Shown here: one piece after another, positions 26,840 through 48,280 of the stretch
Layout of the letters: each line of letters starts with the position of its first letter
Position numbering within the stretch: the first letter of the stretch is position 1
DNA from: a virus
Strand: one strand, 5' to 3'
Virus record (IMG/VR): IMGVR_UViG_3300023073_000004
Location: 1,113 to 65,112 of that record
DNA length: 64,000 nucleotides
The notes under the pieces: generated by a model
The model's database searches: none
What the model saw: the letters and a program-made list of their open reading frames with translations, nothing else
Told to the model about the DNA's origin: nothing
Translations under genes and position numbers: made by a program

Positions 26840-27068
26840 CCGACTGAATCGCGAAGAAATCCGCCAGATCCTCGCCGAGGTGGTCGACATCGCGCGCCCT
26901 GTCGTCATGACGACCGACCAGCTCTGCGCGGCGCTGCACATCACGCGGCCGACGCTGCGCAAGCAGATCGCCAAGGGGCTGCCCATGCATTCGCTGGGAC
27001 CGAAACTCGACCGGTTCATCTGGTCCGAAGTCGAAGCGTGGATCAAGGCACAGGAGGGAGCGGCGTAG
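26832..27068 (+). CDS. xis: Excisionase (AlpA/HTH_17-like)
   Basis: MTTDQLCAALHITRPTLRK...LP...RF.WSEVEAWI; immediately upstream of the integrase. Confidence 0.75.
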   Translation: MTDRLNREEIRQILAEVVDIARPVVMTTDQLCAALHITRPTLRKQIAKGLPMHSLGPKLDRFIWSEVEAWIKAQEGAA

Positions 27069-28465
27069 TGGCTATCGTAACCAGGAAAAACAAGAGCGGG
27101 CCCGTCCACTGGGTGGTGCTCCGAGTCGACGGCAAGTCGACCTGGCGCAAGGCCGGCAGCGGCAAGGTCATGGCCGAGGCGAAGGCGCTGGAGTCCAAGT
27201 GGAAGGGCCAGTTGAAGGCCGGCACCTACGACAAGGCCGAGGCGCTGCCCGAGATGCCGACCGTGGCGGAGTATGGCGCACACTGGCTCCGGAAGCGCTC
27301 CAACCGTCGCGCCAGGGATGACGCGCGCCTGTTCCGTCTGCACGTCGAGCCGCAGTCGATCTCGAGCGAGCGCTTGACCGACGTTCGGCCGCGCCATGCC
27401 CTGGAGCTCGTCGAGCAGCTCCGGGCGAAGGGGCTTGCCGACAAGACGATCTCCAACGTGGTCGCCGTGCTCCACACCATGTTCCGCGACGCCATCCTGG
27501 GCGAGCGCGCCTACACCCAGCCGATGGTGTTGCCCAAGGAGATGCTCAAGCGCCGCCGCAAGAAGGAGCCAGAGATCTACCAGCCGGGCGAGTGCTTGGC
27601 GCTCATGCGAAACGAGCGCATCCCGGCCCCGGTCCGGGTGCTCTGGGCCATCCTGTTCTGCACCGGGGTTCGCCAGGGCGAAGGGGTCGGCCTGCGCTGG
27701 AAGGCCGCCCAGGAGGCCCTGGGCATGAACGCCCTGCACATTCGCGAGCAATACGACGGGGCGCCCCTCAAGACCGACACGTCCCGGGTGGTTCCGGTCC
27801 ACCCCGAGCTCGCGCCCGTCCTGACCTGGTGGGCGACCGAGGGCTGGCTGCTTTGGGTGGGTCGTCGACCCGGGCCCGACGACTTCCTGGTCCCGGCCGA
27901 GACCGGCGTGCCGCTCACCAAGGACGCCAGCTACAAGGCGCTCCGGCGGTCGTGCGAGGCCATCGGCGTTCCGTGGCACGGCGTCCACGGCACGCGTCAC
28001 ACGTTCATCAGCCTGTGCAAACGCGGCGGAGCGGACCACCGGAACCTGCGCACGATCACCCACAACCCGCTCGGCGACATCGTCGATGGCTACACGCGGC
28101 AGGACTGGGAGCCGCTCTGCGCGGTCGTTCGCTGCCTCTCGTTTGATCAGGATCTACGGATTTCGCTGCCTTCAGGAAACCACGGGAAAAATCCTTTCAT
28201 CAAAAATGCATCTGTACCCCTTGTTTTAGCTGGATTGCCAGAAAACACGAAAGCAGAGCCGGGTCTAGCACCCGACGCTTCCGCCACGAAATCAGCTGCG
28301 CCAGTAACGCGATCTAACATCCGATCTAACAGTGACCGTCGGAGGCTCACGATCGGGGCATTTGCGCTGGGCTACGTGGCTCGCTCCATGCCCCGGCTGG
28401 GCCTCCCGAGGGGCGACTGGGTCGGACGCGCCGAGGCCGCTGTGGCCAGCCTGGAGGCCGCATGA
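27068..28465 (+). CDS. int: Tyrosine integrase with a C-terminal extension containing attP
   Basis: Catalytic R (TGVRQGE), K (PLKT), HxxR (HGTRH), H (THN), Y (DGYT); GTG start overlapping the xis stop. Confidence 0.92.
   Translation: MAIVTRKNKSGPVHWVVLRVDGKSTWRKAGSGKVMAEAKALESKWKGQLKAGTYDKAEALPEMPTVAEYGAHWLRKRSNRRARDDARLFRLHVEPQSISSERLTDVRPRHALELVEQLRAKGLADKTISNVVAVLHTMFRDAILGERAYTQPMVLPKEMLKRRRKKEPEIYQPGECLALMRNERIPAPVRVLWAILFCTGVRQGEGVGLRWKAAQEALGMNALHIREQYDGAPLKTDTSRVVPVHPELAPVLTWWATEGWLLWVGRRPGPDDFLVPAETGVPLTKDASYKALRRSCEAIGVPWHGVHGTRHTFISLCKRGGADHRNLRTITHNPLGDIVDGYTRQDWEPLCAVVRCLSFDQDLRISLPSGNHGKNPFIKNASVPLVLAGLPENTKAEPGLAPDASATKSAAPVTRSNIRSNSDRRRLTIGAFALGYVARSMPRLGLPRGDWVGRAEAAVASLEAA
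28142..28331 (+). other. Putative attP: core CCCGACGCTTCCGCCA (28271-28286) with AT-rich spacer and arm repeats
   Basis: Core resembles tRNA-Ser/tRNA-Sec 3' ends (..CGCTTCCGCCA); direct repeat CGATCTAACA at 28310-28319 and 28322-28331; related GATCTAC at 28151; local AT-richness. Confidence 0.7.
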
Positions 28466-45676: not shown

Positions 45677-46180
45677 GTGGCCATTGTTGTTGAAGACGGG
45701 TCGATCGTGGAGGGGGCGAATAGCTACCTTTCCCTCGAAGCCGTGCGGGCGTTCGCGCTCGCTCGTGGCGTCACCCTGAGCTCGACGGACGCTCTCGTGG
45801 AACAGCAGCTCATCCTGGCCGCCGACTACATCGAGTCCAAAGAGATCCGGTTCGTTGGCTACCGGGCGGACCCGGAGAATCAGGTCCTTTGCTGGCCGCG
45901 GAACGCCTACTGCGTCCGCAGCGACGAAGTGCCGGCCAAGATCCGCCAGGCCCAGGGCTTTCTCGTGATGGCCCAGGCCAGCGCCACGCCCGTCAACATC
46001 CTGCCCGTCGGCTCGCCTCCGGAGCCCTTCCCGGTCACCAAGAAGAAGCTCGGGCCGCTCGAGAAGACCTATGCCGCCACGCCCGGCGCTGTCGTCCCGA
46101 CCCTGCCCACCGTCCCCGCCGCCGAAGAAGCTCTCGCCTTCTACTACAAGCGGAGCGGAAGCCGGCTCGAGGTCTACTGA
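45677..46180 (+). CDS. Head-tail adaptor (DnaT-like phage family)
   Basis: IVVEDGSIVEGANSY...AADYIE...QVLCWPR...VP..IRQAQ. Confidence 0.8.
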   Translation: MAIVVEDGSIVEGANSYLSLEAVRAFALARGVTLSSTDALVEQQLILAADYIESKEIRFVGYRADPENQVLCWPRNAYCVRSDEVPAKIRQAQGFLVMAQASATPVNILPVGSPPEPFPVTKKKLGPLEKTYAATPGAVVPTLPTVPAAEEALAFYYKRSGSRLEVY

Positions 46181-46551
46181 TGGCGCTCTTCACGCCCGAA
46201 GAGGTCATCGCGCTTCTGTCGGACCCGGATTGGAGACAGCCCGCCCTCTGGCGCACCATCCGCACCGACGTCGCCGAAGACGCGGCGGAGCCGTTGCAGA
46301 ACGCGACGACGGACGTGGCCTGCTTCGCCGTCAAGCTGCCCACGGACCGCGTCGGGGACGAAACCCGCCACTCCTCGACAGATGAGCAGCCCGAGGGTTG
46401 CTCGATCTTCTACGTGTCGCCGCCTGCCGGAGTCACCCCGAGCAAGAAGGACATCCTGGTCATCGGCGAGCGCGAATACAGCATCGAGAGCCTCGATCTG
46501 CTCGCTCCGGCCGGGACGCTGCTGCTCATCACTGCTACGGTGTACGAGTAA
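46180..46551 (+). CDS. Head closure/stopper protein
   Basis: Size and position; ends YSIESLDLLAPAGTLLLITATVYE. Confidence 0.65.
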   Translation: MALFTPEEVIALLSDPDWRQPALWRTIRTDVAEDAAEPLQNATTDVACFAVKLPTDRVGDETRHSSTDEQPEGCSIFYVSPPAGVTPSKKDILVIGEREYSIESLDLLAPAGTLLLITATVYE

Positions 46552-46750
46552 TGAACCTCGCCCTAAAGGACGAGGCTTTGCGCCTCAACTCCACGGCCTC
46601 CGCGCGCCGCTTCAACGTTGGACACGATGGGCCGCATTACTTCGGCCCTGGATGCGACATTGCGGGCGCCGACGATGTCGGCGTGCTCCGCAAAACCGCA
46701 CCCGGTGCAGACGAACTCGGCCTGGCTCCGGCGATTCGCCTTGTCGATAC
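46535..46750 (-). ncRNA. Predicted omegaRNA (reRNA) scaffold plus guide; boundaries approximate
   Basis: TnpB omegaRNAs are known to overlap the tnpB 3' end and right end, with the guide taken from flanking DNA (here TACTCGTACACCGTAG). Confidence 0.55.
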
Positions 46751-47794
46751 ATCCACAGACTGGACACGTTCTGCTCGTGTTGCGCGGATCGACGAGCACG
46801 ACAGGGACGCCCGCGAGGGCGGCCTTGTATTCGAGGAATGCACGCAACTGGAAGAACGACCACCCGTGCAGATGCGCTCGCTGAGCCTTTTTCACCGTTG
46901 CCCGGGCGCGGATGCCTTGGAGATTCTCCAGTGCGATTCCTCGATCGGTGCCCTTGGCCTTGCGAACGATTTGCTTGCTGATGACGTGGTTGGTGTGAGC
47001 GTGGAAATGCTGTTCTCGCCCGCGAAGCCTTCGGAGGTGGCGCTTGGCGCTCTTGGTGCCGCGGCGCTGAAGAGCAGCGCGGAGCTTTCCAATGCGCGAC
47101 CGGACAGCCAGCGTCGTCTCTCCAGAGTGCACCTCGGTGTCGGAGTCCACCGCCAGGTTGCGGATTCCCAGATCGACCCCAAGCCACCCCTCGGGATCGA
47201 TCGGAGCTCCGTCAGGCACCTCGACGGTGACGAACAGGTAGAGCTTGCCGCGGCGGTAGACCAGATCGGCCTGACCGCGCACGCCGTCGAGTCGAGCTGC
47301 ATGGTAGGCGCCTATGGCGCACGGGACGACAACGCGCCCGTCGAGCGCGAGCAGGCTCAGGCGGTCAAGCCCGTTCTTGAAGCTATACAGGCGCTGGTCA
47401 TACGGGATGGCGCCGAGCACCTTGAAGCGGCAGAGCTTCGAGCGATCGCGCTTGTAGACCTCGCAGACTTTCGAGATGGCGCGCACTGTGTGCTGAGCGG
47501 ACAGGCCGAAGCGCTCTCGGATCTCCCGGTAGTAGAGCTTCTGGAGCCGGATCTTGTCGGCCGACTGAATCTCGAATGCTCTCTCGGCCAACCACGAGCA
47601 CGCCTCGTTGACCCGTCGGATCGTCGCGAGCAGGCGAGCCCTTTCTTCCGGGGACGGCAGCAGTTTCACCGTGGCAATGAGCTTCACGGCCATAGACGTA
47701 GCACGTCTAAGCCGGCGCGCAACAGGCCAGGCCGCTTCCTCCCCGCCGTGAACGACGGGGCTTCCGCGGCTGCCAAGGCACAGGGAGGTAGCAC
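46551..47794 (-). mobile_element. Non-autonomous IS200/IS605-family (TnpB-only, IS1341-like) element
   Basis: tnpB; right-end hairpin CCTCGCCC-TAAA-GGACGAGG (46556-46575); left-end hairpin CCCCGCCG-TGAA-CGACGGGG (47741-47760); ATGA at both junctions; no tnpA. Confidence 0.85.
46563..47693 (-). CDS. tnpB: RNA-guided endonuclease TnpB
   Basis: RuvC-I GVDLG, RuvC-II IALENL, zinc finger CPVCG/CTGCG, RuvC-III HADIVGARN; all three acidic residues intact. Confidence 0.95.
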   Translation of the reverse strand: MAVKLIATVKLLPSPEERARLLATIRRVNEACSWLAERAFEIQSADKIRLQKLYYREIRERFGLSAQHTVRAISKVCEVYKRDRSKLCRFKVLGAIPYDQRLYSFKNGLDRLSLLALDGRVVVPCAIGAYHAARLDGVRGQADLVYRRGKLYLFVTVEVPDGAPIDPEGWLGVDLGIRNLAVDSDTEVHSGETTLAVRSRIGKLRAALQRRGTKSAKRHLRRLRGREQHFHAHTNHVISKQIVRKAKGTDRGIALENLQGIRARATVKKAQRAHLHGWSFFQLRAFLEYKAALAGVPVVLVDPRNTSRTCPVCGCIDKANRRSQAEFVCTGCGFAEHADIVGARNVASRAEVMRPIVSNVEAARGGRGVEAQSLVL

Positions 47795-48280
47795 ATGATC
47801 TCCCTGGTCGACGGTCAGCGCGCCATCCTCCGCATGGCTGAACGTGCCATCCGGGAAGTGTGGGTTGTCCAGCTCGGTGGACCGCCCGAAGACGGAGCGC
47901 TCCGCATGGAGGGCGTCGAGGAGCCGGAGACGTTTCGCGGGGACTTCTACACGCGGTCGAGCATTGTTCTCCCTGACGACGAGCACATGCAGAAGCTCGC
48001 CGGAATCGGGCTCATCGACGACTCAACGGCGGCCAGATATCGCTACATCGGCAACCTGCACGTCCAGGTCTTCGGCAAGAAGAGCGTGGCGGGCTCGCTG
48101 TTCAAGGCCAAGGACATCGCCGACGCCATCAAGAAGAAGTTCGTCGGCCGCCGGGATCGGGAAACCGGCATCGAGTTCATGGCCGTTCGCCTGAAGAACG
48201 AGTCGACCGAGAAGCAGTGGTACCACGTCCGCACTGTGGCCGACTTCCAGTTCGACGAAGTGCTGAGCGTGGCGGGTTAG
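47795..48280 (+). CDS. Tail terminator-like protein
   Basis: Position; YIGNLHVQVF...A..IADAI...F...WYHVRTVADFQFDE pattern. Confidence 0.7.
   Translation: MISLVDGQRAILRMAERAIREVWVVQLGGPPEDGALRMEGVEEPETFRGDFYTRSSIVLPDDEHMQKLAGIGLIDDSTAARYRYIGNLHVQVFGKKSVAGSLFKAKDIADAIKKKFVGRRDRETGIEFMAVRLKNESTEKQWYHVRTVADFQFDEVLSVAG

Follow-up and report, generated by a model that had tools for sequence, protein, structure and literature searches.

The window analysed here, 64,000 nucleotides (nt) of the virus record IMGVR_UViG_3300023073_000004 (positions 1,113 to 65,112), carries a whole TnpB-only insertion sequence (IS) of the IS200/IS605 family. The element is 1,247 bp long and lies on the minus strand at positions 46548–47794, its ends being defined by relatives inserted at unrelated sites. 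Its tnpB gene sits antisense in the late operon of a soil phage, between a gene for a 123-aa virion protein and a tail-terminator-like gene. We give a probability of about 0.72 to reading it as an ordinary selfish element of the IS1341 type that is mobilised in trans and whose TnpB and omegaRNA would cut copies of the junction that lack it. The kind is already known, as both the homing concept and phage-borne tnpB genes have been described; what is new is a natural example that can be read completely and a recurrent pattern of insertion at gene junctions. An initial annotation of the same DNA had placed a TnpB-only IS between two head-tail genes. This was borne out by the Pfam matches of the tnpB frame and by the flanking genes, one following an Ad1 adaptor gene and the other matching a tail terminator in PHROG.

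Ends of the element

Relatives of the TnpB, roughly 6,500 in one of the searches, were gathered from genomes, viral contigs and a large protein collection. Right ends were compared in 26 aligned relatives and left ends in 29, and 27 left ends were folded. The closest relatives were L054, which is also 1,247 bp long and 89% identical at the nucleotide level, and L055 with 81% identity. Family elements measured 1,206–1,277 bp, with L017 (1,342 bp) and L020 (1,471 bp) as exceptions. The right end ...GAGGTTCATTAC was common to the window, L054 and L055. As the three diverged straight after TTAC (the next bases being TCGTAC, TTGTCC and GGCTTC, respectively), the right end of the element lies at 46548 and not at 46551. 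The right terminus was T[T/G]A[C/T] in all 26 aligned relatives, about 7–8 nt past the hairpin foot. At the left end, TCAT or TCAC was found directly 5' of the element in 27 of the 29 relatives, and the TCAC of L054 stood at the same distance from the common ACCTCCCTGTGCCTTGG as the TCAT of the window. These two observations support a left boundary at 47794 and a target-adjacent motif (TAM), which is also the left cleavage site C_L, at 47798–47795 on the minus strand, where the initial annotation had put a TCAT as well. The TAM belongs to the flank, and its plus-strand complement ATGA (47795–47798) holds the start codon of the tail-terminator-like gene.

The element-free junction and its predicted targets

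Relatives of the locus without the IS were found solely via the large protein collection and its contigs, starting from proteins homologous to the upstream product (62% and 48% identity) and to the downstream one (56%). Three of them, L042, L043 and L044, read ...GTGTACGAGTGA..., with a GAG-TGA stop and a GTG start that share 4 nt; the junction sequence of L043 and L044 is ...ACGGTGTACGAGTGATCC... Their GTGTACGA-GTGA is collinear with the predicted empty site, with nothing gained or lost. The native junction is thus a 4-nt RTGA overlap, GTGTACGA/RTGATC, which in the window becomes GTGTACGA/ATGATC. Read from this GTG, the downstream gene of L043 encodes 161 aa like that of the window, and the two products align from residue 1 (MIRLVDGHRAI vs MISLVDGQRAI). 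In the L043 contig (2587–2622) the called start is the ATG at 2620; the GTG at 2587 overlaps the preceding TGA and gives the full 161-aa product. The upstream product of L042 was 81% identical over the 89 residues available and ends in GAGTGA, with at least the final 40 nt equal to positions 46508–46547. L042 also has an extra 101-aa gene (270–575) of weak similarity to the tape-measure family TMP_3, lying between its counterparts of the two genes on either side of the window's IS. The junction is thus a hot spot of mosaicism, and to the right of the IS-free target in L042 stands another gene than in the window.

These junctions bear directly on the anatomy first proposed for the locus, an element spanning 46551–47794 between 4-nt ATGA repeats, with the empty site GAG-TAATG-ATC (GAGTAATGATC), a 1-nt overlap, and the guide TACTCGTACACCGTAG. 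The boundary at 47794 stood, whereas the other had to be moved to 46548 on account of the right ends of L054 and L055. ATGA does occur at both positions, 46551–46554 and 47795–47798, and a 1-nt TGATG overlap is present one gene upstream (46178–46182). However, TTCATTAC is conserved inside the L054 and L055 elements with unrelated sequence past TTAC, and the family terminus T[T/G]AC covaries with the guide tetranucleotide. Moreover, the junction of the IS-free relatives is 3 nt shorter than the TAATG reconstruction, so that the relatives which the initial annotation had asked for were found with another junction than it had drawn. IS200/IS605 elements also make no target duplication on insertion (PMC3201880). 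Judged from these alignments, the ATGA at 46551–46554 is the complement of a TCAT inside the element and the direct repeat is coincidental. We regard the earlier anatomy as almost certainly wrong.

With the boundary the guide also shifts by 3 nt, from the TACTCGTACACC... proposed at first to TCGTACACCGTAGCAG. The flank that the omegaRNA guide is predicted to copy lies at 46532–46547 (minus strand), the final 16 nt preceding the last G of the upstream coding sequence, and this 16-mer occurs only once in the window. On the tnpB strand L042, L043 and L044 all carry TCAC followed by an exact 16-nt TCGTACACCGTAGCAG. The first mismatch to the guide falls at position 18 in L043 and L044, and in L042 identity extends over at least 40 nt. 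By sequence, natural target-bearing alleles thus exist in IS-free relatives, and they look cleavable, as the initial annotation had foreseen. In the occupied genome the flank matching the guide is preceded by TTAC instead of TCAY, so self-cleavage is not expected. Taken with the code of the element ends described below, the relatives' junctions suggest GTGA/TCAC as the ancestral site, in which case the ATG of today may be a later G-to-A change or a polymorphism.

One could ask whether the phage has adopted the TnpB for its own ends, either as a weapon against related competitors without the IS or resident prophages at a conserved virion site, or to control its tail genes. What the guide matches is a conserved stretch of C-terminal coding sequence, and the three IS-free relatives with TCAC and the match come from other samples. 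In addition, the closest relatives of the element are all found in phage-like contigs, and T-even homing nucleases are known to kill competitors (PMC13565253). Nevertheless, the complete and conserved transposon ends point to a mobile element and not to a domesticated gene, relatives occur at many unrelated sites, and the intact RuvC domain (below) sets the protein apart from a TldR-like repressor. We therefore consider adoption by the phage very improbable.

An exact search of viral contigs for either candidate empty site gave no match. Pattern scans of GenBank phages, IMG/VR and JGI metagenome contigs likewise gave no relatives of the flanking or tail-tube proteins. In soil run X3 a 1,582-nt contig matched positions 45700–46290 with one difference and left the window at 46549 ('GAGT'), where it was joined to 48112. 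From 46290 onwards 201 nt of the upstream gene were replaced by 204 other letters, and the match resumed at 46492–46549, which suggests that recombination has exchanged a patch within the gene for the 123-aa protein. The contig fits a GAGTGA junction without the element but was not counted as evidence (likeness set 85, joint side 35 nt). X4 and many short pieces at about 48103–48143 were set aside as unrelated conserved-motif matches.

End hairpins, cleavage sites and omegaRNA

At the left end, folding placed the guide tetranucleotide GAAG (47764–47761) directly before a subterminal hairpin, CCCCGTCG-TTCA-CGGCGGGG, the two together covering 47741–47764 on the minus strand. The right end (46548–46579, minus strand) is made up of the guide tetranucleotide AAAG (46579–46576), the hairpin CCTCGTCC-TTTA-GGGCGAGG (46575–46556), a TTCA linker and the terminal TTAC (46551–46548). 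The tnpB stop codon falls within the loop of this hairpin. Nearly all of the 26 relatives had this right-end hairpin with the loop YTTTAG, on stems that differed in a covarying manner.

In IS608 the four bases 5' of each hairpin foot pair with the cleavage site, AAAG specifies TTAC, and an altered left guide retargets insertion (PMC3201880). The ends of the present family obeyed this code: on the right, AAAG went with TTAC (19/19) and CAAG with TGAC or TGAT (7/7). At the left end, where the tetranucleotides were read by eye from the folds, GAAG went with TCAC, GA[A/G/T]A with TCAT in 16 loci, and GGGA with CCAT in L039. As read from these ends, the putative cleavage sites of the family covary with the guide tetranucleotides. 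The window copy is an exception, as its GAAG is combined with TCAT where the code predicts TCAC, giving a G:T wobble at the fourth position.

A scaffold of the omegaRNA was predicted at 46548–46700 (minus strand; extent approximate at the 5' end) by RNAalifold and by minimum free energy (MFE). It includes a stem GGGCCG...CGGCCC and a 3' hairpin, the latter ending 8 nt before the guide. The last 220 nt of the element folded better than shuffled controls (MFE z-score -3.4). RNAalifold returned pairs with 14 and 6 double changes from a MAFFT alignment that caught part of the terminal hairpin and in which stems were misaligned. Compensatory changes were many in the GGGCCG...CGGCCC stem and in the terminal hairpin. 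A stem-loop at the 3' side, at most 10 nt from the guide, is a conserved feature of omegaRNAs (PMC10278001), and the stem-loop predicted in the window matches it. In Rfam the matches were to HgcC alone, weak (E 0.64) and below threshold at both ends, 46546–46650 and 47719–47830 (minus strand). Their scores of 17.5 and 17.7 bits, against a gathering score of 50, were driven by a GC-rich hairpin and the GGAGGA that follows it. The sequencing runs that hold the locus were DNA runs only, with no RNA run among them.

TnpB protein

The tnpB gene (46563–47693, minus strand) encodes 376 aa. Both Pfam domains, OrfB_IS605 and Cas12f1-like_TNB, exceeded their curated cut-offs: PF07282 (of the OrfB_IS605 / Cas12f1-like_TNB set) scored 78 bits against 26.3, and PF01385 33.1 bits against 30.5. 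The structure entries nearest by sequence were Cas12f/TnpB proteins such as 9nzq (E 5e-28), ahead of the other listed structures. Alignment to such solved structures gave a complete RuvC triad, D174 (GVDLG), E256 (ALENL) and D339 (HADIV), in agreement with the intact RuvC residues noted before, and all four zinc-finger cysteines (C310, C313, C329 and C332). The length of 1,247 bp leaves no space for a TnpA inside the element, which makes it a non-autonomous element of the IS1341 type and not an autonomous IS605.

Flanking genes and insertion pattern

The insertion is silent for both flanking proteins, as the stop is restored and the start is kept. The GTAA at the end of the element (46548–46551) completes the last codon of the upstream gene at its third base, leaving GAG, which still encodes Glu, and adds a TAA stop. 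The C-terminus TATVYE of the homologues is thus retained in the upstream protein. The downstream start codon is preserved within the TAM.

A Shine-Dalgarno-like GGGAGG lies in the left end of the element at 47783–47788 on the plus strand, 6 nt before the ATG at 47795. A similar core was seen in the first 12–20 nt of the left end, on the opposite strand, in the window (47783–47794) and in L054, L055, L058, L031, L059, L064, L033 and L063. Counted by eye, 9 of 10 close relatives had GAGG or GGAG 4–8 nt ahead of the start codon in the TAM, and ACCTC was conserved in the left ends of five. The core could stand in, as an outward Shine-Dalgarno motif, for the translational coupling that was lost; alternatively, transposition could account for its conservation.

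In the closest relatives tnpB was antisense to runs of small co-directional genes, and the genes around relatives included integrase, Bro-N, DnaB/primase, RuvC and methyltransferase genes. The called downstream gene began exactly at the TAM RTG in L031, L058, L059/L062, L063 and L064. The called upstream gene ended at a TAA supplied by the element in L054, L063 and L064, and in L059 at a TAG completed by the last base of the element. We then counted independent insertions with both ends read, excluding the window and demanding on either side an open reading frame (ORF) of at least 60 codons in the frame needed; for the background, RTGA sites were drawn at random from these loci. Antisense insertion at a stop/start overlap was found in 10 of 29, as compared to 5.8% in the background (P about 3e-6). 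Antisense positions at stop/start overlaps of co-directional genes were noted in L004, L010, L013, L016, L031, L054, L055, L059, L063 and L064, in which GTAA, or TA plus G, remakes the stop. Among these L013 lies in an ABC-exporter gene pair, L016 before an XRE regulator and L031 before an SNF2 helicase. An in-frame xxG-TAA stop implies an original in-frame xxR-TGA, so these were true gene ends and not interruptions of genes. The TAM RTG as a gene start was on its own not significant, as 35% of random RTGA sites in these GC-rich loci open an ORF of at least 60 codons; hence only the two-sided criterion is informative. The pattern may reflect either target choice or the survival of neutral insertions. 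A literature search returned no paper describing such an antisense-at-RTGA junction pattern.

These features would also fit a TnpB-only lineage built for phage operons. In such a lineage TCAY complements RTGA, the TTAC end remakes the stop and the left end carries an outward Shine-Dalgarno motif, so that antisense insertion at junctions would be neutral by design. RNA-guided cutting of empty junctions could then carry it, independently of TnpA, into related phages that co-infect or are already resident. We hold this idea tentatively and think it rather unlikely.

Phage and locus

The source record is 65.5 kb long, complete according to CheckV and 66% GC, and the window covers nearly all of it. 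The virion module is on the plus strand. The phage genes include those for a terminase, a tape-measure protein and a tyrosine integrase (27038–28465, plus strand; PF00589, E 3e-9). Going by the integrase, the phage is probably temperate, and as a prophage it would offer the element a period in the chromosome during which a TnpA of the host could work on it. An Ad1 head-tail adaptor gene (PHROG match) directly precedes the upstream virion gene (46180–46551, plus strand; 123 aa), whose C-terminus ...TATVYE is shared by the homologues P0005 and P0006 and by the L042 product. The tail-terminator-like gene (47795–48280, plus strand; 161 aa) matches PHROG 179 (E 9.6e-6), and its ATG lies within the TAM.

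The element is present as a single copy in the 65.5-kb record. An identical element-bearing form was found in a second independent study (X2), where a contig bridges both junctions, so the insertion is no assembly artefact. On the plus strand a 466-codon open frame (46398–47798) spans the entire element in antisense and closes with the TGA contained in the junction ATGA. We take it for a probable antisense artefact of GC-rich DNA; translation of a reverse-strand ORF lying over the tnpB of a cyanophage has been reported in a preprint (bioRxiv 10.64898/2026.02.14.705889).

Discussion

Under the preferred reading, a Y1 TnpA supplied in trans would insert the element 3' of TCAY, the complement of an RTGA stop/start overlap. 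The upstream gene would keep its last residue and obtain a TAA stop at once, and the downstream start would stay in the TAM and gain a Shine-Dalgarno-like motif. The transcript of tnpB would yield, besides the protein, an omegaRNA from its 3' end, and the 16–20 nt past TTAC (TCGTACACCGTAGCAG...) would serve as the guide. The complex would then cut junction copies that lack the element, that is TCAC or TCAT followed by the guide sequence. Such copies may arise by excision or come with a related phage or prophage, and recombination with an element-bearing copy would restore or spread the element. Homing from phage to phage, or a drive, is plausible, and the idea has been published as 'non-restorative homing' (PMC13565253). 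Yet it is not needed to explain the element, since in a phage that encodes an integrase the ordinary behaviour of a chromosomal IS in the lysogen suffices.

Several points weigh against this reading. The Y1 transposase domain (PF01797) had no match across the whole virus record, in keeping with the absence of TnpA reported earlier, and a cognate TnpA was also not found beside matching ends in the genomes of relatives. Five genomes carrying relatives did have Y1 transposase genes, none of them within about 1.5 kb of ends of the type seen in the window element. The nuclease activity and TAM preference of TnpB are inferred from its sequence, and the TCAT wobble, in place of the predicted TCAC, may have weakened excision or cleavage. 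A promoter and terminator scan was uninformative, and a promoter-like site was not found in it. Finally, the left flank is near-identical between the window and L042, and the right-side proteins of the IS-free relatives are just 49–56% identical in amino acids. This divergence of the right flank would make gene conversion into those relatives inefficient.

Some of the same observations would suit a stranded passenger, acquired from the host chromosome during lysogeny, now immobile, its TnpB perhaps silent antisense to a strong late operon, and persisting as a neutral insertion. The lack of TnpA in the phage record, the TCAT in place of the coded TCAC and the outcome of the promoter scan agree with this. 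So do the two unaltered flanking proteins, and the identical form in two studies fits simple vertical inheritance. On the other hand, the ORF is still full at 376 codons, with none of the catalytic or zinc residues lost, the hairpin and the guide tetranucleotide are intact at either end, and intact relatives exist by the thousands, many of them in phage-like contigs. We consider a stranded passenger unlikely, and keep to a selfish element mobilised in trans.

Every component of a TnpB system could be read at this locus: the ends, the TnpA code, the TAM, the guide and target-bearing alleles in related phages. Homing between phages independent of TnpA has hitherto been based on theory and plasmid experiments, and the locus offers defined substrates for it. 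The antisense position at RTGA, the restoration of the stop by GTAA and the Shine-Dalgarno-like left end suggest how IS200/IS605 elements persist in densely coded phage genomes.

Comparison with known systems

The element resembles other IS1341-type members of the IS200/IS605 group, such as those of ISDra2 TnpB and AmaTnpB. They likewise have a RuvC D-E-D triad, a zinc finger and subterminal hairpins at both ends, are inserted 3' of a tetranucleotide without duplication, and have an omegaRNA region (here predicted) overlapping both the right end and tnpB at its 3' end. The TCAC determined experimentally as the TAM of AmaTnpB is also the TAM read for the window's family (PMC10278001). In contrast to these members, the window element lies in a phage late operon and its own TAM is TCAT. 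Its protein is nearer to Cas12f/TnpB entries, e.g. 9nzq, than to the other structures listed.

With IS608 of Helicobacter pylori it shares the 4-nt guide code 5' of the hairpin foot, with AAAG reading TTAC as at the left end of IS608, and a right cleavage site that falls within the element, a few nt past the hairpin on its 3' side (PMC3201880). However, TTAC is the right-end site in the window element and TCAY the target, the left site is 34 nt from the hairpin foot as compared to 19 nt in IS608, and IS608 carries its own tnpA.

In T-even phages, the free-standing homing endonucleases SegF, SegB and Mob have an outcome similar to the one predicted here, where a nuclease encoded between two conserved virion genes would cut the allele without it in a relative that co-infects (PMC13565253). 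Recognition in the window is instead predicted to be RNA-guided and to be set by the absence of the element, not by sequence differences.

The tnpB of cyanophage A-1(L) is likewise phage-borne and absent from sister phages, and a homing role has been discussed for it (bioRxiv 10.64898/2026.02.14.705889). That copy is identical to copies in the host and was described without defined ends, guide or target; for the window element no host copy is known, but the ends, the guide and natural targets can all be read.

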